39,003 nt of DNA from a virus. Position 1 is the stretch's first letter, and every line of letters starts with the position of its first letter. Of the stretch, positions 8,967-19,760 are shown in pieces. The notes under the pieces were generated by a model, which searched no databases, was not told the origin of the DNA, and worked only from the letters and a program-made list of their open reading frames with translations. The stretch lies in IMG/VR virus record IMGVR_UViG_3300045988_097822, positions 1 to 39,003 of that record. One strand, given 5' to 3'. The position numbers were made by a program, and so were the translations under genes.

Positions 8967-10085
8967 ATGGCGAAAAAGGAGAAGTATTACAAAAGGCCGG
9001 ACGGGCTATTTGAGGCCATTCGGACGGTGAACGGAAAGCGGAAGGCGTTCCGGGGCAGAACCTGCCGGGAGGTAGATCGGAAGATCCTGGAATACCGGGA
9101 CGAAGCTGAAAAGGGATGGACATTTACCAAAGCGGCGGACAACTGGTATCGGGAAATCGAAACGGAAGTTGCCCATGCGACCTACCGCAACTATGGAAAC
9201 ACCATGCGGCGGCTGGTGGCAAGGTTTGGGCCGGAGCGGATCGCGGAGATCACGCCGGAGGAAATCGTGGCCTATATCCGACAGTTTGAGAAGAAAGACT
9301 ATTCCCGGGACACGGTGCAGCTTGAAATCTCCGTTTTGAAGCTGATTTTCCGGTCGGCCATCAACCGCAGAACGGAAAGCGGGCTTGCCGTCAATCCGGC
9401 GGCGGAGGTCCGCAAGTCAAAGGGCCTGAAACACCGGGTCAGAACGGCGCTGACGGAAGAACAGGAAGCAAAGGTTGAAGCCACGGCCAGAGAGAAGCGG
9501 GGCGAGTGGTGGCTGCTGGGGTATTTCCTCATGTACACCGGTTTACGCCGGGGTGAGGCGCTGGCGCTGACATGGCGGGACATCGACCGCAAAGCCGGTG
9601 TGATCCATGTGTGCAAAAAGCTGAACTATGACAACGCCAATGTGCCCTTGCTAGAGGATCACATGAAATCCGAGAACGGCAGGCGGGATGTCCCTATCTT
9701 TGACGAGCTGGCGCGGATGCTTCCGCGAAACCAGATCGGCTATGTGTTTCCGTCCCCGGATACCGGAAAGTATCTAACTGCGTATGAGCTTGCCAAATAC
9801 TGGAAGCAATATTGCCGGGATGCCGGGTTGATGGATACAATCACCGCCGACAACGGGAAACAGAAGGAAAAAACGCAAGTCTCCCCCCACTGCTTCCGGC
9901 ACACCTTTGCAACGATCTGCTACGAAGCCGGGGTGGATGCCCGGACGGCGGCGGAGTGGCTGGGGGACAGCGTGGCGGTCATGGAAAAGGTCTATATCAA
10001 CCTGCGCAAGAACCACCGGAGCGACAGCGTGCGGCAGGTCAACGAACATCTTTCCAGGGCGAAAGCGGCGGGGGAAAGATCTTAA
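8967..10085 (+). CDS. int: Tyrosine recombinase / phage integrase
   Basis: An N-terminal SAM-like domain is present. The catalytic region reads GLRRGEALALTWRDID ... HCFRHTFAT ... MEKVYINL (R..HxxR..Y). Confidence 0.9.
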   Translation: MAKKEKYYKRPDGLFEAIRTVNGKRKAFRGRTCREVDRKILEYRDEAEKGWTFTKAADNWYREIETEVAHATYRNYGNTMRRLVARFGPERIAEITPEEIVAYIRQFEKKDYSRDTVQLEISVLKLIFRSAINRRTESGLAVNPAAEVRKSKGLKHRVRTALTEEQEAKVEATAREKRGEWWLLGYFLMYTGLRRGEALALTWRDIDRKAGVIHVCKKLNYDNANVPLLEDHMKSENGRRDVPIFDELARMLPRNQIGYVFPSPDTGKYLTAYELAKYWKQYCRDAGLMDTITADNGKQKEKTQVSPHCFRHTFATICYEAGVDARTAAEWLGDSVAVMEKVYINLRKNHRSDSVRQVNEHLSRAKAAGERS

Positions 10086-11296: not shown

Positions 11297-11797
11297 TCAA
11301 GCCGGGAGCGCGTCGGAGTTGGTGGAGCGGGCAAAGGTGGTGCTTCCGTACTTGCTGCGGATCTCGGCCATGGTCTTGGTGCCCTTGTGCCAGCGCTGGC
11401 CCTCTTCGGCGAAATGCCAACTCCATAGCTTCTTAGTGGAGGACCAGCGGCACCCGGCAGCCTTCAGGGCTTCTTTGTGCTCCTTGGTGTTGCCGCCGAT
11501 CCAGAGCCAGCGACCGCACAACTCAATTTCGAGGCCGTCCAGCTTCAGCAGGGCCGCGATAATGGCGATGAAATCGCCGGCGCTCTCGGTGGTGGCGTGG
11601 GTCCGTCCGGTGGTGTCCTCGGCGGCCTGCTCGTTCTGGCTGCGCTTGAGCACCTCAAACCGGGCGGAATACTCGGCGTTGATGGCCTGCATGGTGGCGG
11701 TGTCTCCGCCTTTGTCGGGGTGGTTCTGCATGGCGGCGGCCTTGTAAGCCTTCTTCAGCTCGTCGAGGTTCTTGCAGTTGATGAAATAAGTAGTCAT
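11297..11797 (-). CDS. J-domain (DnaJ-like) protein
   Basis: LKKAYKAAAMQNHPDKGGD contains the HPD tripeptide of J domains. The C-terminal sequence is LEIELCGRWLWIGGNTKEHKEALKAAGCRWSSTKKLWSW. Confidence 0.75.
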   Translation of the reverse strand: MTTYFINCKNLDELKKAYKAAAMQNHPDKGGDTATMQAINAEYSARFEVLKRSQNEQAAEDTTGRTHATTESAGDFIAIIAALLKLDGLEIELCGRWLWIGGNTKEHKEALKAAGCRWSSTKKLWSWHFAEEGQRWHKGTKTMAEIRSKYGSTTFARSTNSDALPA

Positions 11798-11857
11798 TTT
11801 GTAATCCTTTCCGGCCTGTCGGCCTGTGGCGTTGTCGTGTTTGCTTTTGTTGCCTGA

Positions 11858-11887
11858 ATTATAAGGCGGACTGATACGAGCTGTCAA
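11858..11887 (-). promoter_or_regulatory. Consensus sigma70-type promoter driving the J-domain operon
   Basis: The reverse complement reads TTGACA, an 18-nt spacer, then TATAAT. Confidence 0.6.
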
Positions 11888-11963
11888 GGGGGTTTTCGCA
11901 AATTCGTGCAGGTTTGGCAGGTTCGCACAGTATCAGGCGGACTTTTTTGTGCATGTTGTCAGG

Positions 11964-11992
11964 CTGACTTATACGCGCCTATGCGATATAAT
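11964..11992 (+). promoter_or_regulatory. Divergent promoter candidate for the RHH-nuclease pair
   Basis: CTGACT-17-TATAAT (the -10 is at 11987-11992), followed by an AAGGGGG RBS and a TTG start. Confidence 0.4.
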
Positions 11993-12016
11993 AAAACGCA
12001 AAAGGGGGTGTAACTA

Positions 12017-12214
12017 TTGGAGCACAAGACATTGAGGACCAGCGACGCCCAGCGCCGCGCCTCTCTCAAATGGGAGCACGCGAACAACGAGAAAATCACG
12101 GTCAAGCTGAGGACCGGCAGCGACCCCAGCAAGGCCCAGATCAGAGCGGCAGCAGCCGCCGCAGGCCAGAGCGTCAACGCCTGGATTATTGAGGCCATCC
12201 GGGACAAGCTGTAA
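12017..12214 (+). CDS. Ribbon-helix-helix (Arc/CopG-like) DNA-binding protein
   Basis: It has a TTG start. The C-terminal SVNAWIIEAIRDKL is typical of RHH and antitoxin-type proteins. Confidence 0.5.
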   Translation: MEHKTLRTSDAQRRASLKWEHANNEKITVKLRTGSDPSKAQIRAAAAAAGQSVNAWIIEAIRDKL

Positions 12215-12228
12215 GGGGGTGAGACGCG

Positions 12229-12600
12229 ATGTCGAAGCAGCGCAAAGAATCACAGTATAACGAGGCTGGAGAGCTGGTTTATCAGGTCGGCAACAATGGC
12301 CCAGCGGGTGACGTTTCAGGCGTCAGAGAACCGGCAAACAAGGCGGAGGCACAATGCTTCAAGCTGTTGCAGGACAACGGATGGACGCCGACAAAGCGCG
12401 GATGGCCGGACTTCTTCTGCATCAAGGGAAACCGGGTCTGTGCGGTCGAGGTAAAACCGCGAAGCACAACGCCGCTAAAGAAGAACCAGCTTGTAATCAT
12501 GGGCGAATTATCAGCAAAGGGAATCCCCTGCTTCCTCTGGTCGCCGGATGGAGGCTTTGAGGAAGTCAAGGGAGTAATTCGTAACTGCCTAATCGAATAG
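12229..12600 (+). CDS. PD-(D/E)XK nuclease (VRR-NUC / Hjc-like)
   Basis: GWPDFFCIKGNRVCAVEVKPRSTTPLKKNQ gives a D...E-x-K core. Confidence 0.6.
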   Translation: MSKQRKESQYNEAGELVYQVGNNGPAGDVSGVREPANKAEAQCFKLLQDNGWTPTKRGWPDFFCIKGNRVCAVEVKPRSTTPLKKNQLVIMGELSAKGIPCFLWSPDGGFEEVKGVIRNCLIE

Positions 12601-12660
12601 CAAAGCAACCCGCCGGGGTGTGGATCTGTCAAGGTTCACGCCTCGGCTTTTCATGTCATA

Positions 12661-12717
12661 GGGGGAACCATAAGGGGAACCATGGGGGGAAACCTTAAGG
12701 AAGGGGGGAAGGAAGGG
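12661..12717 (+). repeat. Purine-rich G-run tandem repeats (GGGGAACCAT-like units)
   Basis: GGGGGAACCATAA GGGGAACCAT GGGGGGAAACCTTAA GGAAGGGGGGAAGGAAGGG. Confidence 0.7.
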
Positions 12718-12736
12718 TTACAGGAGGGGGCGTATT

Positions 12737-12782
12737 CCCCCTACCCCAGAGAGATAAATATATATTTCTTACAGGGGGGTGT
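12737..12782. promoter_or_regulatory. Second copy (B) of the C-run / AT-core / G-run element seen at 2781-2836
   Basis: CCCCCTACCCC AGAGAGATAAATATATAT TTCTTAC AGGGGGGTGT. The 18-nt core is identical to 2793-2810. Confidence 0.6.
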
Positions 12783-12840
12783 TATATATATACTCTACCG
12801 AGAGAGTACCGGAAGAAGGAGAGCCAGCGAATAAAAAACG

Positions 12841-12876
12841 CGAGAGAACGAGAGAAAACGGGAGCAAAACGGAGCA
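12841..12876 (+). repeat. Iteron-like 10-11 nt tandem repeats
   Basis: cGAGAGAACG AGAGAAAACG GGAGCAAAACG GAGCA. Confidence 0.6.
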
Positions 12877-13504
12877 TTTGTGAGGTATTCGGAGATATTC
12901 GCAGATAGGCCGGTGATCCGGTCAGAGGTCAGCGGCTCCAATTCGGCGGGGCAATTACCCTTTTCCGGTGAGATTTAAGGGGCTATTAAATATTTCCGTT
13001 GGGACTGCTGGGCTTCGGCTGTTGCTGTGTCGATTCTGTGTATTTCCTCTTCCGGCCTGGGCAATTCCTGTTGCCTGCTCCGGCTGGGGGCTGATTCCAT
13101 CAGGACGGGCCGAGGCTTCACCGGCTGGGGGTCAGGGGGCCAGAGGTAGAGACCAGAGAGCAGGGGGTTAGGGGGGTAGCGGAAAAACAGGGGGTGTCTC
13201 TCGCGCGGGGTATAGGGCTATATATCCACATCCCCTCCCCCCTTTCACAGACCTCTTTGCACTGGCATGTCAGCTGCGGGAAGCTATGCCGGTGCTCCCT
13301 CTGGGTGGGGGTGGCGGAAAAAGGGGGCGGGGGATTTTATGTAGAACATTACGAAAATAACTGAAACCCATTGTGTCCACTTGACGAAATATGCTTGAAT
13401 GAAGTTGGCGGGATAGAATCCGCCTGCCTCCTGTGTCAGACGCCAGTTTTCACCTTCAGTTCCTTTCCTGTTGCCCGGTGGGTCCGAACAGCCCACCGGA
13501 GCAT

Positions 13505-13580
13505 GGTTTCGTAGCTCAGCTGGAAGAGCGAGCGGTTGTTAACCGCTGGGTCGCAGGTTCGAGTCCTGCCGGGACCGCCA
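13505..13580 (+). tRNA. tRNA-Asn(GTT): tRNA-Asn (anticodon GTT) with encoded CCA
   Basis: Manual cloverleaf of 76 nt. Acceptor stem: GGTTTCG/CGGGACC. D arm: GCTC-AGCTGGAA-GAGC. Anticodon arm: AGCGG-TTGTTAA-CCGCT. T arm: GCAGG-TTCGAGT-CCTGC. The 3' end is the discriminator G followed by CCA. Confidence 0.9.
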
Positions 13581-14230
13581 GAAGCCGGGTCGCACCCGGA
13601 CAATGTGAGACCGTTCGTCATGGCTCATATGGGAATGACAATGCTCGCTGAAAACTGCGCTTGTCTTGATGCGTCAAGACCGGTTTGACCTGACGGAATA
13701 GGGGCTATGACTTTTCGGAGCGTAGTTGCCGGTAGCGTGTGACAATCTAAGCGAGAAAGACGGCCAATATGCGGCATAGGTGCCCCGTAAGGGGAGACCA
13801 CAGCGAGTGACGGGGACTTTCCTCGAAGCGCTAAAGCAGGGCAGGACTGCAATGCCGTACCAGATGTATGCTACCGCATTGCGGCACCACGGAAGGGTAA
13901 GACCGCTACAAGGGGCTTGCCTGTGCGCTGTATGAAAGCGGCAGGCCGAATAATAATTATTTGGCTGGCTCCGGCTATGAATGAAGAAACGGATGCGACT
14001 GACATACCGGCGCAGGGCTGAAAAGTTCCGTGGTTAGCGCGTACAGAACCATGCAGAGCGAACTCCGAGGCGTGTTCATCGAAAGGTATGCGGAAGTGGT
14101 GAGGTAACGGCTGCCCTTGGGCAAGGCCGTTGTGTAGGGCAGTATGCTTGCCCGGTTCTGTACGGCTAATTGTGTAAGCAATCCAAACGGAGCGCAATGC
14201 CGTACCAGAATTTTTTGTGAGAGGGGGGCC
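13581..14230 (+). ncRNA. Candidate large structured non-coding RNA (ROOL/GOLLD-class hypothesis). Ends and strand are provisional.
   Basis: About 650 nt has no credible ORF. Hairpins are dense: CCGGGTcgcACCCGG, GTCTTGAtgcgTCAAGAC, CCCCgtaaGGGG (GNRA loop), ACGGCTGCCcttgGGCAagGCCGT and GCAATGC..GCATTGC. The 16-nt GCAATGCCGTACCAGA occurs twice. The stable tetraloops read correctly only on the + strand. Confidence 0.4.
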
Positions 14231-14235
14231 GGGGC

Positions 14236-14769
14236 ATGGCTTATCAGAAGAAAAATCCAACTGCGGAAGAGCGCAAGGCGCACATGGATAACATGAACGA
14301 GAAGGCCGCCGCGGCCCACAGGAAACAGACGATTGAGAAGATCAAGGCGTTCCTGAAGCAGTCTGAGGAATACTTTGACGCGCAGGACCGGCTGGAGCAG
14401 GCATACAGCGAGGCGGGCCTTGCCAATGCGATGCGATGGACGGTTCAGCGGCTTCAGGGGTATTACGACTACAACGATGGCCGGGAGGCCGAGGTGGTCG
14501 AAGCGCAGGTGGAAGCCTTTGAAGCGGGCAATGAGGAGATCAACGATCCCCGCTGCGTTATGAGTTACTACGTGCGGCTGGCATACCAGCGGATTCAGGA
14601 GCAGATCGACACCAGCCCCATCTACCAGGAAAAGGGCATGGTGACGCGAGGCATTTTCCTGAATAAGCAGAAGCGTCTGGGCGGCTATCAGGACAAGCAG
14701 GAGACCCGCCAGGACATCAGCGTGAACGTGACCTTCGGGGACGGCGTGGACGCAAGCGACTTCAAGTGA
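14236..14769 (+). CDS. Hypothetical protein (first gene of the rightward late/accessory block)
   Basis: 177-aa ORF preceded by a GAGAGGGGGG RBS. Confidence 0.6.
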   Translation: MAYQKKNPTAEERKAHMDNMNEKAAAAHRKQTIEKIKAFLKQSEEYFDAQDRLEQAYSEAGLANAMRWTVQRLQGYYDYNDGREAEVVEAQVEAFEAGNEEINDPRCVMSYYVRLAYQRIQEQIDTSPIYQEKGMVTRGIFLNKQKRLGGYQDKQETRQDISVNVTFGDGVDASDFK

Positions 14770-14781
14770 GGAGGCGGCGAG

Positions 14782-15024
14782 GTGAACGGCCTGATTTTGG
14801 TTTTATCCCTGATCTGCGGGGCGGCCAGCATGGGCGCTGCCGTATGCGCAGTGCTGATCCTGCGGCTGCTGCGGGAGATCAAAGCCCCCTCCCCCACGGA
14901 ACCGGAGAAGCCGGAGGTGGAAGAGCCTACGGACCGGCAGAAAAGCGTGGAACAGGGCATTGATAACCTGATGACCTACGATCTGAACACCATGAAAGCC
15001 AGCCTGAAGGGGCGGGAGGTGTGA
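14782..15024 (+). CDS. Small membrane protein (N-terminal TM)
   Basis: GTG start after GAGGAGG. The sequence is LILVLSLICGAASMGAAVCAVLILRLL. Confidence 0.5.
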   Translation: MNGLILVLSLICGAASMGAAVCAVLILRLLREIKAPSPTEPEKPEVEEPTDRQKSVEQGIDNLMTYDLNTMKASLKGREV

Positions 15025-15025
15025 T

Positions 15026-15475
15026 ATGGCGGTTACGGTACAGCAGATTTTTGACATCGCCATCCACCTGATGGATTCCCAGAATGAATCCACCGGTTCC
15101 ACGGACACGGCGGACACCAAGGAGTACAAGCTGCGGACTGTTTCTCTGCTGAACAGCGTTTTAGACAGGGCGTTCCCGTACAGCGACAACTACCGGGAGG
15201 CACTGGAAGCGGCGGGCGGCAAGCGGCCTATCTGCCCCAAGGTGACGGAGATGGCGGACGAGGTGGCGCTGGATGAGCGGATCTGCACCGGGGCGCTGCC
15301 CTACGGTCTGGCAGGTCTGCTGCTGCTGGAGGAGGACCCCAGCCGGGCCAACTTCCTGTGGCAGACGTTTCTGGAACAGCTGGAGCTGTGCCGCCAGAGC
15401 CTTCCAAGCGTGATCGGTGACGTGGAAAACCTTTACGGCGGCATTGAACACGGGGAGTTTGGAGCATGGTGGTAG
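15026..15475 (+). CDS. Hypothetical protein (possible virion adaptor)
   Basis: 149-aa ORF tightly packed with its neighbours. I recognised no motif. Confidence 0.5.
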   Translation: MAVTVQQIFDIAIHLMDSQNESTGSTDTADTKEYKLRTVSLLNSVLDRAFPYSDNYREALEAAGGKRPICPKVTEMADEVALDERICTGALPYGLAGLLLLEEDPSRANFLWQTFLEQLELCRQSLPSVIGDVENLYGGIEHGEFGAWW

Positions 15476-15666
15476 ATGGGACGTGGGTCTACCGCTGCCC
15501 TATCTGCGGGAAAGCGCTTCAGCACATCGAACCGGGTAGCGTGATCTACAACGCGCCAATTTACTGCCGAAGATGCAAGGTGAGTCACTACCCAACCATT
15601 TTTGAGGGGCGGGAGCTGGATACAGACGTCCCCTTCCCCATCACACATGTACAGACGGAGGAATGA
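15466..15666 (+). CDS. Cysteine-rich KTR-like zinc-ribbon protein
   Basis: YRCPICGKAL...NAPIYCRRCK resembles the Cys-rich KTR family layout. Confidence 0.5.
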   Translation: MVVDGTWVYRCPICGKALQHIEPGSVIYNAPIYCRRCKVSHYPTIFEGRELDTDVPFPITHVQTEE

Positions 15667-15668
15667 CA

Positions 15669-16127
15669 ATGAAAATGAAAACCTACATCGGCACGAAAAT
15701 TATTGAGGCGATCCCTGCTATTCGCAAGGGTGGCACGGTCTACGAGAAAGACCAGCCCATCCCCAAGAGCATGGACCCCGAGGAGGAGGGCTATAAGGTC
15801 CGCTACCAGGACGGCTACGAGAGCTTTAGTCCAAAGGCTGTGTTTGAGGCCGCATATCGGGAAACAGACTGCCTGAGTTTTGGCCTTGCCATTGAAGCAG
15901 CGAAGAAAGGGAAGAGAATTGCCCGCCGCGGTTGGAATGGCAAGAATCAGTATGTTGAGCTTGCGGAGCGCATCAGCTATGAGAACGCTGCGCATGAGGT
16001 GGTCAACGCCAATCACGAAGCTATCGGCAACAAAGCACTTGCTTTTGTCGGCACATCCGGCGTGCAGCTCGGCTGGCTGGCATCGCAGGCGGATATGCTG
16101 GCTGATGACTGGGAGATTGTGGAATAA
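15669..16127 (+). CDS. DUF2829-domain protein (Tad2-like candidate anti-Thoeris sponge) with an N-terminal extension
   Basis: LSFGLAIEAAKKGKRIARRGWNGKNQYV ... LGWLASQADMLADDWEIVE matches the hallmark DUF2829 termini. The ATG at 15669 lies 7 nt after GGAGG. Confidence 0.65.
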   Translation: MKMKTYIGTKIIEAIPAIRKGGTVYEKDQPIPKSMDPEEEGYKVRYQDGYESFSPKAVFEAAYRETDCLSFGLAIEAAKKGKRIARRGWNGKNQYVELAERISYENAAHEVVNANHEAIGNKALAFVGTSGVQLGWLASQADMLADDWEIVE

Positions 16128-16145
16128 TTCTCCAGTAAACTGAAT

Positions 16146-16210
16146 AAACGAGAGCCAAACGAGGCCATGAGAACGGCGAAAGCCGTTTCTTGTGGTCTCG
16201 TTTTTGTTTT
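16146..16210 (+). terminator. Intrinsic terminator (long interrupted hairpin plus T-tract)
   Basis: AAACGAGAgCCA...ACGGCgaaaGCCGT...TGGtCTCGTTT followed by TTTTGTTTT. Confidence 0.6.
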
Positions 16211-16219
16211 GTCAGCAAA

Positions 16220-16263
16220 GCCAGACCAGGCTTTGAAAATACAAAGATCCGGCCAGACCAGGC
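16220..16263 (+). repeat. Two 12-nt direct repeats GCCAGACCAGGC, 32 nt apart, upstream of the scaffold gene
   Basis: The copies are at 16220-16231 and 16252-16263. The second lies within the CCGGCCagaccaGGCCGG palindrome. Confidence 0.6.
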
Positions 16264-16280
16264 CGGGGAAAGAGGCCAAT

Positions 16281-17186
16281 ATGGACGAAAACATGAACCA
16301 GATCCCCGAACAGGAGACCGAAACTACGGACGCCTTTTTGGATGGCTGGGACGGCGAAGCAGAAGCAGCGGCAGACCAGCCGGAAGTGGACGCAGAGCCG
16401 GTGGAGACTGGCGAGGAAACGCTTGCCGAGGACCCCAGTGAGAGCGCAGAGACGCCGGAAGAGGGCACTGAGCCTCCCGCAGATGCGGAACAGGCATCCC
16501 AGACGCAGCAGACCGAGGCGGAGACCGTGGACGCACGGCCCCAGACATGGGAGCTGCGGCACATGGGCGAGGTGCGGCAGGCCAACGAAGCGGAAATGGT
16601 GGCATTGGCCCAGAAGGGCATGGACTATGACCGCATCCGCAGCCAGTATGACGAGTTTAAGCCTGTGATGGAGATGGTCAACCGCTTTGCAAACCAGCAG
16701 GGGTTGAACACCAATGACTACATTTCCATGCTCCGGGCGCAGGCAAAGCAGGCCGAGGGCCTGAGTGAAGCGGACGCACGGCGCTCCGTGGAACTTGAGG
16801 ACCGGGAGGCCGTTGTGGCCGCCGCAGAAGCGGAACGGCAGGCCCAGCAGGACGCCATGGCGCAGGCCCAGCGGGCCGAGGCCGAGGCGGCAAGCCGCCG
16901 ACAGGCGGACATTCAGGAATTTCAACAGACATTCCCCGAGGCAGCAAAGGACCCCAACAGCATCCCGCCCCAAGTCTGGGCGGACGTGCGGAACGGCTCT
17001 TCTCTGGTAGCCGCCTACGCCCGATACGCCGTGCAGCAGGCACGGCAGGACGCGGCAGCCGCCCAGCGTGAGACGGCTTCCGTGCAGCAGAACCAGAAGA
17101 ACGCAGCTCGGGCCACCGGCAGCATGCAGAGCGCCGGTGATGGGCCGAAGTCTAAGGACCCGTTCCTGGAGGGCTGGGGGGACTAA
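16281..17186 (+). CDS. Capsid scaffolding protein
   Basis: It has an acidic N-terminal part and A/Q/E-rich coiled-coil-like segments. It lies directly upstream of the major capsid gene and ends DPFLEGWGD. Confidence 0.6.
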   Translation: MDENMNQIPEQETETTDAFLDGWDGEAEAAADQPEVDAEPVETGEETLAEDPSESAETPEEGTEPPADAEQASQTQQTEAETVDARPQTWELRHMGEVRQANEAEMVALAQKGMDYDRIRSQYDEFKPVMEMVNRFANQQGLNTNDYISMLRAQAKQAEGLSEADARRSVELEDREAVVAAAEAERQAQQDAMAQAQRAEAEAASRRQADIQEFQQTFPEAAKDPNSIPPQVWADVRNGSSLVAAYARYAVQQARQDAAAAQRETASVQQNQKNAARATGSMQSAGDGPKSKDPFLEGWGD

Positions 17187-17231: not shown

Positions 17232-18284
17232 ATGGCTATCAATTACGCCGTTAAATACGCAACCAAGATCGCGGAGGCTTTCTCTAAGCCTTCTATCACC
17301 GACGACGATGCCGGTAAGGCATACACCTGGACCGGCCCCAACAGCAAGACCATTGTCGTTGGCAGCGTGGACACCGTGCCGGAGACCGAGTACACCAACA
17401 CCGGCGACAACCGATTCGGCACCACCTACGACCTGGGCGACACCCAGCAGGAGATGACCTGCGAGCAGAAGCCCGCTTTCTCCTTCACCATCGACGCGGT
17501 GGATCAGACGGATCAGGCCATTGAGAAGTCCGCTTCCCGCGCCCTGCGGCGTCAGCTGGAGCAGCGGACCACCCCCAACATGGACCGCCACCGCATCAAG
17601 AAGTGGGTGATGGGCGCTAATATCCAGCGTCAGGAGACGACCGCCCCCACCAAGAGCACCATCGGCGGCCTGATTATCGACCTGAACGCCGATATGACCA
17701 ACGCCCTGGTGCCCATGGAGAACCGCACCCTGTACATTGCCACCAGCTATTACAAGCTGCTGAAGCAGGATCCCGCCTGGCTGGGCACCGAGAGCCTTGC
17801 CAAGGAGGCCCTGACCAGAGGCGTGGTGGGCCAGTACGACGGCTGCCGGGTGAAGAACATCCCCGACCGCTATATGCCCGCCGGCGTGTACTTCTTCATC
17901 AAGTGGAAGGGCAGCACCGTGGACCCCGTGAAGCTGGCGCAGTACGACATTCTGCCCAAGGTGAAGGGCTATTCCGGCCCCGTGGTGCAGGGCGTGACCT
18001 ACTATGACAGCTTCGTGCTGGGCGCCAAGGGCGACGGCGTTGCCGTTTGCGGCAATGCTGCCATTCTGGCGGCTCCCACGATGTCTATCACCGGCCATGC
18101 CGTCAGCATCACCGCCGTGTCCGGCGTGGTGTTCAAGTACACCACCGACGGCACCAACCCCCGATACTCCAACACCGCCCAGATCTACACCGCCGCTGTG
18201 ACCCTGACCGCCGGTCAGACCATGCGGGCCGTGGGCACCAAGGACGGCTGCGTGGGCATCGAGGGCACCAAGGATTACGAGTGA
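17232..18284 (+). CDS. Major capsid protein with a C-terminal Ig-like (chitobiase/hexosaminidase-C-like) domain
   Basis: The call rests on its position after the scaffold gene and its size. The C-terminal FKYTTDGTNPRYSNTAQIYTAAVTLTAGQTMRA matches the YTxDGSxP..S..Y pattern. Confidence 0.75.
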   Translation: MAINYAVKYATKIAEAFSKPSITDDDAGKAYTWTGPNSKTIVVGSVDTVPETEYTNTGDNRFGTTYDLGDTQQEMTCEQKPAFSFTIDAVDQTDQAIEKSASRALRRQLEQRTTPNMDRHRIKKWVMGANIQRQETTAPTKSTIGGLIIDLNADMTNALVPMENRTLYIATSYYKLLKQDPAWLGTESLAKEALTRGVVGQYDGCRVKNIPDRYMPAGVYFFIKWKGSTVDPVKLAQYDILPKVKGYSGPVVQGVTYYDSFVLGAKGDGVAVCGNAAILAAPTMSITGHAVSITAVSGVVFKYTTDGTNPRYSNTAQIYTAAVTLTAGQTMRAVGTKDGCVGIEGTKDYE

Positions 18285-18374: not shown

Positions 18375-19760
18375 ATGCCTCGATATAAACAGACAGCAGG
18401 CGGGACGGTACAGGTGGATTTGGGGACGCTGAACCCCAAGCAGAAGCAGTTCTGCCAGTCCAGGAGCCGGTACACGGCTTACGGAGGCGCCAGAGGCGGC
18501 GGCAAGACACACGTTCTGCTGCGGAAGGCGGCAGGCGGCGCGCTCACCTACCCCGGCATTAAGATCCTGATCGTGCGCCGGGAATACCCGGAATTGGAGC
18601 AGAACATCATCTTACCCATGCAAAAGCTGATCCCGCCGGAGGTGGGCAGCTACAACGGCAGTATGCGCATGATGTTCTTCTGCAACGGCAGCATCATCAA
18701 GTTCGGTCACTACGGGGCCGGAGACGATCAGGAGTATCAGGGCCTTGAGTTTGACTGGATCTTCATGGAGGAGGCCACCCAGTTCTCGGAATCCCAGTTC
18801 CGCACACTGGGCGCTTGCTTGCGCGGTGCAACGAAGTTCCCCCGGCGGATGTACCTGACCTGCAACCCCGGCGGCATCGGCCACCTGTGGGTGAAGCGGC
18901 TGTTCGTGGACCGGGAGTACCGGGAGGGGGAAAAGGCCAAGGATTACACCTTCATCCCCGCCACGGTGGACGATAACCCCCAGCTTTTGGAGGCGTCTCC
19001 GGAGTACAAGCAAATGCTGGACCTGCTGCCGGAGGATGTGCGGCGGGCGTGGCGCTACGGCGATTGGAACGCCATGGCAGGCACGTTCTTCCCGGAGTTC
19101 CGGCGGGAGACCCATGTGATCGCGCCCTTTGTACGGGTGCCTCGTGAGTGGAAAAAATACCGGGCGTTCGACTACGGCCTTGATATGTTCGCCTGCCTTT
19201 GGGTGGCGGTGGACTTTGAAGGGCGGGCCTATGTGTATCGGGAGGTACAGCAAAGCGGCTTGATCGTCAGCGAGGCGGCAAAGCTGGCAAATGCCCTGAC
19301 CCCGCCGGAGGAACACATTGAGTTCACCATTGCCCCGCCGGATATGTGGAACCGGCAGAAGGACAGCGGTCGGAGCATGGCGGAGATCTTCGCGCAGTAC
19401 GGGCTGGGACTGCTGAAGGCCAGCAACAACCGTGTTCAGGGCTGGATGGCCGTGAAGGAGCTGCTGAAGCCCATGAAGAGCGACACGGACCGGCCCGGAT
19501 TGCTGGTGACGGAAAACTGCGTGGGCCTGATCCGCAACCTGCCCTCCATCCAGCATGACGAGAAAAACCCCTCGGACTGCGCCACGGAGCCCCATGAGAT
19601 CACCCACATCTGCGACGCTGCCCGGTATTTCTGTGTCACCCGCGTGTTGGGTGCCCAGAAAACCGTGGAGAAGATCGTGGACGATTTTGACGAGGGCGAG
19701 GACTACGATGACGTGATGACGGGCGGGGAGATGACCGCCGGTTATCTATCCTACGGATAA
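18375..19760 (+). CDS. terL: Terminase large subunit
   Basis: Walker A is YGGARGGGKTH and Walker B-like is FDWIFMEEATQF. A nuclease half lies C-terminal. Confidence 0.9.
   Translation: MPRYKQTAGGTVQVDLGTLNPKQKQFCQSRSRYTAYGGARGGGKTHVLLRKAAGGALTYPGIKILIVRREYPELEQNIILPMQKLIPPEVGSYNGSMRMMFFCNGSIIKFGHYGAGDDQEYQGLEFDWIFMEEATQFSESQFRTLGACLRGATKFPRRMYLTCNPGGIGHLWVKRLFVDREYREGEKAKDYTFIPATVDDNPQLLEASPEYKQMLDLLPEDVRRAWRYGDWNAMAGTFFPEFRRETHVIAPFVRVPREWKKYRAFDYGLDMFACLWVAVDFEGRAYVYREVQQSGLIVSEAAKLANALTPPEEHIEFTIAPPDMWNRQKDSGRSMAEIFAQYGLGLLKASNNRVQGWMAVKELLKPMKSDTDRPGLLVTENCVGLIRNLPSIQHDEKNPSDCATEPHEITHICDAARYFCVTRVLGAQKTVEKIVDDFDEGEDYDDVMTGGEMTAGYLSYG

Follow-up and report, generated by a model that had tools for sequence, protein, structure and literature searches.

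The window analysed in this study is a stretch of viral DNA of 39,003 nucleotides (nt), covering positions 1 to 39,003 of the IMG/VR record IMGVR_UViG_3300045988_097822, and the element in question is its region 13581-14235, which adjoins a transfer RNA (tRNA) gene. Comparison with related phage loci showed three independent, conserved and structured RNA families on the plus strand of this region, designated A, B, and C, which stand alongside tRNAs as exchangeable cassettes. The region is probably a phage tRNA/non-coding RNA island, in which tRNA-Asn is followed head to tail by A, B, and C as independent RNA genes. The original prediction, made from the letters of the window, had put forward a candidate single large ornate RNA of ~650 nt, either similar to ROOL and GOLLD or new. 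Its view of the region as non-coding, structured, and read from the plus strand held, whereas the relationship to ROOL or GOLLD and the idea of one RNA did not.

Relatives were collected by exact-word scans of IMG/VR with a 27-mer from module C and an 18-mer from module B. Each word was found in at least 119 contigs, and the B and C contig sets were mostly distinct. The 236 related gut-phage loci from both scans, referred to by L numbers, were used as the comparison set for boundaries and orders. This comparison split the region at sharp conservation boundaries, and the island in the window is accordingly described by the following units.

13505-13580, plus strand: tRNA-Asn (GTT), which opens the island and has its CCA encoded at 13578-13580 (called by ARAGORN and, with 64 bits, by the Rfam tRNA model).
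13581-13770, plus strand: module A, a structured RNA of ~190 nt, found in 79 of the 236 loci, with the CCA of a tRNA directly 5' in most loci.
13771-13862, plus strand: module B, a tRNA-shaped cloverleaf RNA of 92 nt, whose 18-mer occurs mostly in contigs without C.
13863-~14180, plus strand: module C, a multi-domain RNA of ~320 nt.

The tRNA had been correctly recognised as adjoining the region. Across the 236 loci, A, B, C, and the tRNAs were found at varying spacings and in 43 different orders, among them B alone, C alone, tRNA-C, A-B, B-C, B-A, and C-B. Most loci contained only one or two modules, in any order and often with tRNAs interposed, and other DNA common to the window at the megablast level was present in only 41 loci. 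The end of A coincides with the start of the B acceptor stem, and in many loci A and C start 0-5 nt past the CCA of a tRNA or of B. Furthermore, covariation statistics backed A, B, and C each separately. A blastn search of INPHARED, which holds cultured and annotated phages, gave only three matching contigs, all of them unannotated human-faecal phages; each carries a different piece of the region, one in reversed order, and always amid tRNA genes. The islands also contain at least three further conserved non-coding cassette families (in 103, 82, and 33 loci), none of which is in the window. Examples are L170 182-581, L206 9263-9544, and L104 4355-4505, and one such family often stands directly 3' of B, where ACCA is followed immediately by ACCACACAAGCGGGCGAGGAAGCG.

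The sister phage L192, which is 86-96% identical to the window over 11342-17000, lacks exactly 13865-14194 (330 nt, corresponding to C). The common junction is the 16-mer GCAATGCCGTACCAGA, which had been noticed to occur twice in the window.

13849-13864, plus strand: copy 1 of the 16-nt direct repeat, consisting of the 3' end of B plus GA.
14194-14209, plus strand: copy 2 of the repeat, present only in the window and the near-identical contig L051.
14181-14209, plus strand: a recombination scar, in which a fragment like the 3' domain of another C variant is fused to copy 2.

The first part of the scar (14181-14193) is similar to the 3' domain of a different C variant, the fragment being 94% identical to L003 3231-3262. 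Judged from these alignments, the two 16-mers are the borders of a cassette indel, that is, a gain or loss of C, together with a local recombination scar. Alternative or long-range pairing of the two copies, as once suggested, did not find support, since copy 2 is restricted to the window and L051 and marks the indel boundary. A second functional tRNA-like acceptor at 14194-14209 was also considered and rejected, because the preceding hairpin is absent and only two loci have it.

These observations bear on the view that the region is one large ornate RNA of ~650 nt, ROOL/GOLLD-like or new, of which A, B, and C are domains swapped in the manner of the variable 5' half of GOLLD. The niche is indeed the same as that of ROOL and GOLLD (PMC12286853), A, B, and C directly adjoin one another in the window, the order A-B-C is found again in a few loci, and minimum free energy (MFE) folds of the single sequence contain some cross-module helices. 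However, the occurrence of one or two modules in most loci, in any order and with tRNAs between them, the clean indel of C between sister phages, the lack of conservation of the cross-module helices proposed originally, the lack of a ROOL or GOLLD match at E<=10, and a whole-region z-score of only -1.54 all argue against a single molecule, and we consider this view quite improbable.

The membership in ROOL or GOLLD was examined with the Rfam 15 covariance models, which were run on the whole window at the gathering score and on 12500-14400 at E<=10 with lax filters. The tRNA-Asn was the only credible match. No match was obtained with the models of ROOL, GOLLD, RNase P, transfer-messenger RNA (tmRNA), group I introns, or ribozymes, ARAGORN called no tmRNA, and ROOL and GOLLD gave no covariance-model match in 50 related loci either. 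Weak matches to YrlA, JUMPstart, and microRNA models were regarded as noise, and resemblances seen by eye to an RNase P P4-like motif, the Alu domain of the signal recognition particle RNA, and the 11-nt GAAA receptor were not substantiated. In contrast to the family assignment, the niche was described correctly: the region lies beside a tRNA, in a phage, and just before the packaging and late genes, as ROOL and GOLLD do (PMC12286853, PMC5737381).

The MFE of the full 655 nt did not differ significantly from that of shuffled sequences (z-score -1.54 on the plus and -1.94 on the minus strand), and the modules separately gave -2.37 for C, -3.17 for B, and -0.72 for A. Folding energy alone is thus weak support, and it is the conservation and covariation among relatives that provide the real evidence. 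Covariation in alignments of relatives, a check proposed originally, was found for all three modules, by RNAalifold for B and C and with an additional slid-pair control for C. The helices listed originally are all present in the sequence, but only five of them proved to be conserved and covarying: CCGGG/CCCGG (13585-89 with 13595-99, formerly placed one position off), GTCTTGA-tgcg-TCAAGAC (13663-80), CCCC-gtaa-GGGG (13783-94), GCCTG..CGCT..AGCG..CAGGC (13919-46), and ACGGCTGCC..GGCA..GCCGT (14107-31). Three others were not conserved in relatives. Instead of GTCAT/ATGAC, the family pairs GUGAG with CUCAC or CUCAU; GAGAAAG/CTTTCCTC would bridge two separate modules; GCAATGC/GCATTGC would join B to C, yet C follows many other tRNAs. 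The AT-rich stem was unsupported.

No credible gene was found in 13581-14235, in agreement with the original prediction. Among 99 homologues of the 3' two-thirds of the region, which are the distinct sequences of the C sample and are 47-97% identical to the window, 772 indels had lengths that are not multiples of three against 130 that are, which indicates that C is non-coding, and no frame was kept open throughout. The minus strand does contain long open reading frames (ORFs), namely 13871-14260 (129 amino acids) and 13975-14319 (114 amino acids), so that a protein-coding region on this strand could be imagined. In addition to the indel lengths, however, the open frames vary from 43 to 125 codons among relatives, what looks like a protein cluster over the island invariably runs antisense to the RNAs, and the conservation is explained by base-pair covariation. 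We regard a coding function as hardly credible.

Module C consists of a 5' domain, the helices H1 and H2, a core three-way junction, and a 3' domain, with the following elements.

13863-13918, plus strand: variable 5' domain, with at least four unrelated sequence types.
13930-34 with 14003-07, plus strand: kissing-loop pseudoknot between the H1 loop GUAUG and the core loop CAUAC, spotted by eye and then scored.
13989-14031, plus strand: core three-way junction, whose pairing is deduced from complementarity, as its columns do not vary.
13989-93/14027-31, plus strand: core helix H3a.
13994-14001/14008-14, plus strand: core helix H3b.
14017-19/14024-26, plus strand: core helix H3c, with a GAAA tetraloop at 14020-23.
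14032-50/14154-71, plus strand: long-range helix H4, closing the 3' domain.
14105-15/14120-32, plus strand: helix H5, inside the 3' domain.

For the covariation analysis, 32 sequences, each <93% identical, were aligned, and 31-32 of them were used for the core columns. RNAalifold gave 48 pairs, 21 of them with compensatory changes. When the pseudoknot was included, 96.4% of the cells of 53 pairs were paired, compared with 34-47% when the partners were slid by 1-3 columns; 25 pairs and 195 cells were changed on both sides, and none of 500 shuffles reached these values. The five pairs of the pseudoknot were 100% paired in 31 sequences and four of them showed compensatory changes, with variants such as AUG/CAU, ACG/CGU, UGCA/UGCA, and GCGC/GCGC. 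The helix closing the 3' domain is 11-18 bp long and occurs in six types that differ in sequence and keep a constant position. The 3' end is conserved as UUGUGUAAG (14170-78), with CUGUGU/A-AA as the family form. The core was identical in the 31-32 aligned sequences except at three loop positions that vary and for one C/U change in the window. As the sequences were collected with a word lying in the core, 27 of its 43 nt were preset by the search, and the invariance is demonstrated only for the remaining 16. A covariance model of the central 129 nt detected a single copy in the window (140 bits) and likewise a single copy in each locus, with no second or divergent copy in the window or in 100 loci. 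As a side observation, CCACGGAA (13887-94) is perfectly complementary to UUCCGUGG of the core (14027-34) and would compete with H3a. This pairing was rejected as a feature of the family, being present only in types 1 and 2 of the 5' domain; it could be a conformational switch or else a coincidence.

The functional strand was also evident from these data. About 12% of the paired cells in the core domain of C are G-U, which would be A-C on the opposite strand, and of the tRNAs within 2.5 kb of C, 153 lie on the same strand and 0 on the opposite one. The many G-U pairs and the co-orientation of the tRNAs identify the plus strand as the functional one. Compensatory changes, G-U pairs confined to one strand, and a loop-loop pseudoknot that covaries are marks of RNA and not of duplex DNA. 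They therefore oppose the idea that the region acts as DNA (a pac or cos site, a recombination hot spot, or an attachment site at a tRNA-like sequence) or as a cis-acting leader of the late operon instead of encoding free RNAs. For this idea speak the fixed position just upstream of the terminase genes and the frequent recombination implied by cassette exchange and the 16-nt repeat scar. On the other hand, the distance from the modules to the downstream genes varies, with tRNAs interposed, and flanking repeats of at least 9 nt around C are missing in 76 of 102 loci, which also led us to reject C as a mobile element with target-site duplications. A DNA-level or leader function thus appears very improbable.

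Module B is conserved from R-CGGCAU to AUGCCG-Y-ACCA, and its flanks are wholly diverged. Its cloverleaf is composed as follows.

13771-77/13852-58, plus strand: acceptor stem of 7 bp, followed by the unpaired A 13859 and CCA at 13860-62.
13779-81/13797-99 and 13783-86/13791-94, plus strand: arm I, with a GUAA (GNRA) loop.
13802-05/13829-32, plus strand: arm II, a long arm whose internal loop AGUGA/GAAG is invariant and whose tip at 13811-25 varies.
13836-39/13847-50, plus strand: arm III, with the invariant 7-nt loop GGCAGGA.

RNAalifold on an alignment of 50 B sequences gave this four-arm cloverleaf with 26 pairs, seven of which showed double changes, and the MFE structure of the window copy alone was the same cloverleaf (z-score -3.17). 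The first acceptor pair is G-U, G-C, or A-U depending on the copy, and arm I covaries as CCCC/GGGG, GCCU/AGGC, and CCUC/GAGG. B has the 7-bp acceptor stem, the cloverleaf, and the 3' NCCA of a tRNA. It was found to be without a 7-nt anticodon loop on a 5-bp stem and without the D-loop and T-loop consensus (GG...UUCRA); arm II ends in a tip that differs in length and sequence among copies and has a loop of 3-7 nt, and hence forms no anticodon loop. ARAGORN and the Rfam tRNA, tmRNA, and YrlA models (E<=10) did not call B. Judged by these features, B is tRNA-shaped and is apparently not a decoding tRNA. A k-turn or loop-E reading of arm II was not substantiated.

Module A has a conserved 5' part that opens with two hairpins, and contains a swappable middle domain of at least four types among the loci.

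13585-89/13595-99, plus strand: helix P1, covarying.
13604-11/13623-29, plus strand: helix P2, covarying.
13657-61/13734-38, plus strand: helix P3, closing the swappable middle domain and covarying between types by inspection.
13663-69/13674-80, plus strand: hairpin of the middle domain with the loop UGCG, covarying between types by inspection.

In P1 and P2, for example, GUGAG/CUCAC is replaced by GUGGG/CCCAC, GUGUG/CACAC, or GUCGG/CCGAC, and P3 occurs as GCGCU/AGCGU, CACGG/CCGUG, and CACCG/CGGUG. The hairpins P1 and P2 are followed by the conserved single strand AAUGACAAUGCUCGCUGAAAACUGC, which contains GCUGAAAACUGC, and the 3' tail is conserved as GUGUGACAAUCUAAGCG..GACGGCCAAUAU. In view of its unremarkable folding energy, A is the least secure of the three modules.

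Taken together, the reading that we consider best is that A, B, and C are tRNA-linked, processed, and trans-acting phage RNAs, as far as can be judged from sequence comparison. Because A and C start right after CCA ends and A ends at the acceptor stem of B, processing of the tRNA type is suggested. The island and the tRNA would be transcribed rightward as one precursor, in which the tRNA and the tRNA-like B would supply sites for RNase P (5') and for CCA-end (3') processing. Cuts at 13580/81, 13770/71, and 13862/63 would then release stable A, B, and C, which would act in trans during lytic growth. The unvarying junction of C may serve a conserved partner from the host or the phage as a site of binding or catalysis, and B, mimicking the acceptor/elbow part of a tRNA, may engage a tRNA-handling factor. 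Specific macromolecular partners are suggested both by this junction of C, locked by the pseudoknot, and by the way in which B mimics an acceptor end. The role would be of the same kind as that of ROOL, GOLLD, drum, and skipping-rope, possibly counter-defence or takeover of tRNA or translation. Counter-defence or manipulation of tRNA and translation is the most economical guess in view of the company, namely tRNAs, drum, skipping-rope, and an anti-defence gene.

As a separate observation on the cassette ends, the junctions are repeatedly CCA-GA: CCAGAAGCC, CCAGATG, and CCAGAAT in the window (13578-13583, 13860-13866, and 14205-14211), and CCAGAGGCC and CCAGTTGCC at cassette junctions of other loci. 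This junction may be a common processing or recombination signal.

A precursor that encodes CCA and carries a stable structured RNA 3' of it requires an endonucleolytic cut. Theta ribozymes, which are similar to that of hepatitis delta virus (HDV), are located directly 3' of tRNA CCA in gut Caudoviricetes and have a nested double pseudoknot of ~50-70 nt. Similarly, A and/or C might be self-cleaving or tRNA-processing ribozymes that free the 3' CCA of the upstream tRNA; both directly follow the CCA of many different tRNAs, and the core of C is pseudoknotted and unvarying in the sample, as expected for a catalytic site. However, A and C fit neither the theta fold nor any Rfam HDV model, and the hatchet, hammerhead, twister, pistol, and RNase P models gave no Rfam match either. 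The first 55 nt of C, where a P1 of the HDV type would be expected, belong to at least four unrelated types, and A opens with a plain covarying hairpin that is incompatible with such a P1. In addition, 320 nt is far beyond the need of self-cleavage, and C and B also occur in loci without any tRNA. A ribozyme function of this kind is consequently improbable in our estimation.

Returning to A, B, and C as processed and trans-acting RNAs, several points weigh against this reading. The predicted processing sites are inferred solely from conservation boundaries, and neither a convincing sigma-70 promoter nor a terminator was found near the island. Covariation does not prove the helices H3a-c of C, which are constant throughout the sample. 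The fold of A is no more stable than shuffled sequences (z-score -0.72), with its conserved single strands unexplained, and the ~95% identity of B could in part reflect recent horizontal spread and not constraint. A recurrent protein partner of an RNA (reverse transcriptase, DUF3800, or ligase) was not found in the window or among recurrent neighbouring ORFs, and a trans-acting function would thus gain no direct support from a consistent partner protein.

The window represents a temperate phage or a prophage, which encodes an antirepressor, SSB, and RusA in addition to the following genes.

8967-10085: integrase.
17232-18284: major head protein.
18375-19760: large terminase.

In the related loci, the islands are followed after ~0.8-2 kb by TerS-like, TerL, and portal genes in the same orientation, and are often preceded by genes of the late-activator-like or ParB/methylase type. 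The core of C was found in 4 of 185,579 species-representative genomes, all of which are Oscillospiraceae, Oscillibacter, or Eubacteriales metagenome-assembled genomes from the gut; with at least 119 viral contigs against four species genomes, C appears to be phage-specific. The Rfam RNAs drum and skipping-rope were detected in 7 of 36 related loci on the same strand as B, at these positions.

L150 231-336, L164 1140-1245, and L156 351-456: drum.
L094 72-166, L127 2349-2443, L158 3667-3761, and L169 1982-2076: skipping-rope.

They stand directly 5' of B in six of the seven loci, and the drum of L164 is ~0.9 kb upstream. Downstream of the island in the window, at a distance of ~1.5 kb, a Tad2-like ORF (Thoeris anti-defence 2; PF11195, E 8e-21) was observed on the plus strand at 15663-16127. 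This gene is itself a clean indel (~15640-16130) relative to L192 and L051, which are otherwise 94-100% identical, suggesting that this part of the genome is a hot spot of accessory genes.

The island lies in a 1.6-kb gap between an ORF ending at 12600 and one starting at 14236, and tRNA-Asn is the single tRNA inside. Directly 3' of the former ORF, a terminator-like 16-bp hairpin followed by TTTTC was seen at 12612-12647 (plus strand), which hints at a new transcription unit that includes the RNA island. The ~900 nt 5' of the tRNA (12601-13504) are purine/G-rich and without a credible ORF, and are kept only in close relatives (L192, 86%). They contain the tandem repeat CATAGGGGGAAC/CATAAGGGGAAC (12657-12680), the sequence GGGGGTAGCGGAAAAACAGGG at both 13172 and 13307, and an inverted repeat (13230-45 with 13320-35), and might function in regulation, in packaging, or as an origin. 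A strong GC hairpin, CCGGTGGGT-CCGAACA-GCCCACCGG (13476-13500, plus strand), ends 4 nt before the tRNA; together with the D-arm of the tRNA, it gave a sub-threshold match to YrlA, a Y RNA-like RNA (26 bits against a gathering score of 69, E 0.008).

The significance of these results lies in the nature of the RNAs that share this niche. The functions of GOLLD, ROOL, drum, and skipping-rope, all of phage tRNA islands, have been unknown for 8 to 17 years. Three families beyond Rfam 15 are added here, and at least 119 viral contigs from the human gut carry B and at least 119 carry C. B looks like a tRNA with the acceptor end retained and decoding lost, and C is large and pseudoknotted, with a core that is constant in the sample. 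The data show RNAs of this sort to be exchanged as cassettes with tRNA-type ends on either side, and the pair of the window and L192 is a natural experiment differing in a single cassette (C), so that function can be tested by comparison or deletion. Should their targets be tRNA-directed defences or translation, the RNAs would constitute an RNA-based layer of counter-defence in abundant, uncultured gut phages. A more far-reaching proposal is conceivable, although we hold it to be rather unlikely. In it, C would represent a novel class of large phage RNAs with an activity of its own, as a ribozyme or a ROOL/GOLLD-like RNA-only particle, and B a tRNA-mimic decoy that titrates a host factor acting at acceptor/CCA ends, such as an immune nuclease or a toxin directed at tRNA; together with A, drum, skipping-rope, and the at least three unnamed families, they would form an RNA-only accessory arsenal swapped at tRNA-type processing sites before the late genes.

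B resembles tRNA and tRNA-like RNAs (YrlA, mascRNA, and the tRNA-like domain of tmRNA) in its 7-bp acceptor stem, four arms, 7-nt loop of the third arm, and 3' A-CCA. It differs from tRNA in that the loop of arm III is GGCAGGA and not the T-loop UUCRANY, and in the GNRA tetraloop of its first arm. Species 1 and 2 of phage T4 (rnaC/rnaD) are small stable RNAs of unknown function that are co-processed from the phage tRNA cluster. The likeness to them consists in being stable RNAs in a phage tRNA cluster and is drawn from description only; the phage and the host are unrelated.

Enigmatic structured RNAs in phage tRNA islands are already known as a kind (PMC12286853, PMC5737381), and the families A, B, and C are absent from Rfam 15. 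No description of them was found in the literature, although a 2023 catalogue of 10,006 viral candidate RNAs (PMC10690425) may include them. ROOL (RF03087) is an RNA of phages and prophages that is located near tRNA islands and has a multi-junction fold with pseudoknots (PMC5737381, PMC12286853). C occupies the same niche and is likewise multi-domain and pseudoknotted, and in the phage window tRNA-Asn abuts the region. C differs in showing no covariance-model match, in its length (~320 nt against ~580 nt for ROOL), and in its long core, which is constant in the sample, highly conserved nucleotides being few in ROOL; moreover, the region consists of three units (190, 92, and 320 nt) and the host clade here is Oscillospiraceae. 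GOLLD (RF01998) is a phage RNA that adjoins tRNAs, is induced in lysis, and has a conserved and a variable part (PMC12286853). C similarly has a conserved centre with swappable 5' and 3' domains on either side. It gave no model match, and GOLLD exceeds 800 nt compared with ~320 nt of C and forms oligomeric cages, whereas C is known here from its sequence.

Drum (RF02958) and skipping-rope (RF02924) are small and highly conserved, and were considered by their discoverers to be likely biochemically sophisticated, with function unknown (PMC5737381). Neither is present in the window, A, B, and C match neither model, and the DUF3800-type association reported for them is absent in the window and in recurrent neighbouring ORFs. 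In related phages, however, they lie in the same islands, on the same strand, and in the slot 5' of B, which suggests that A, B, and C are further members of the same cassette repertoire.

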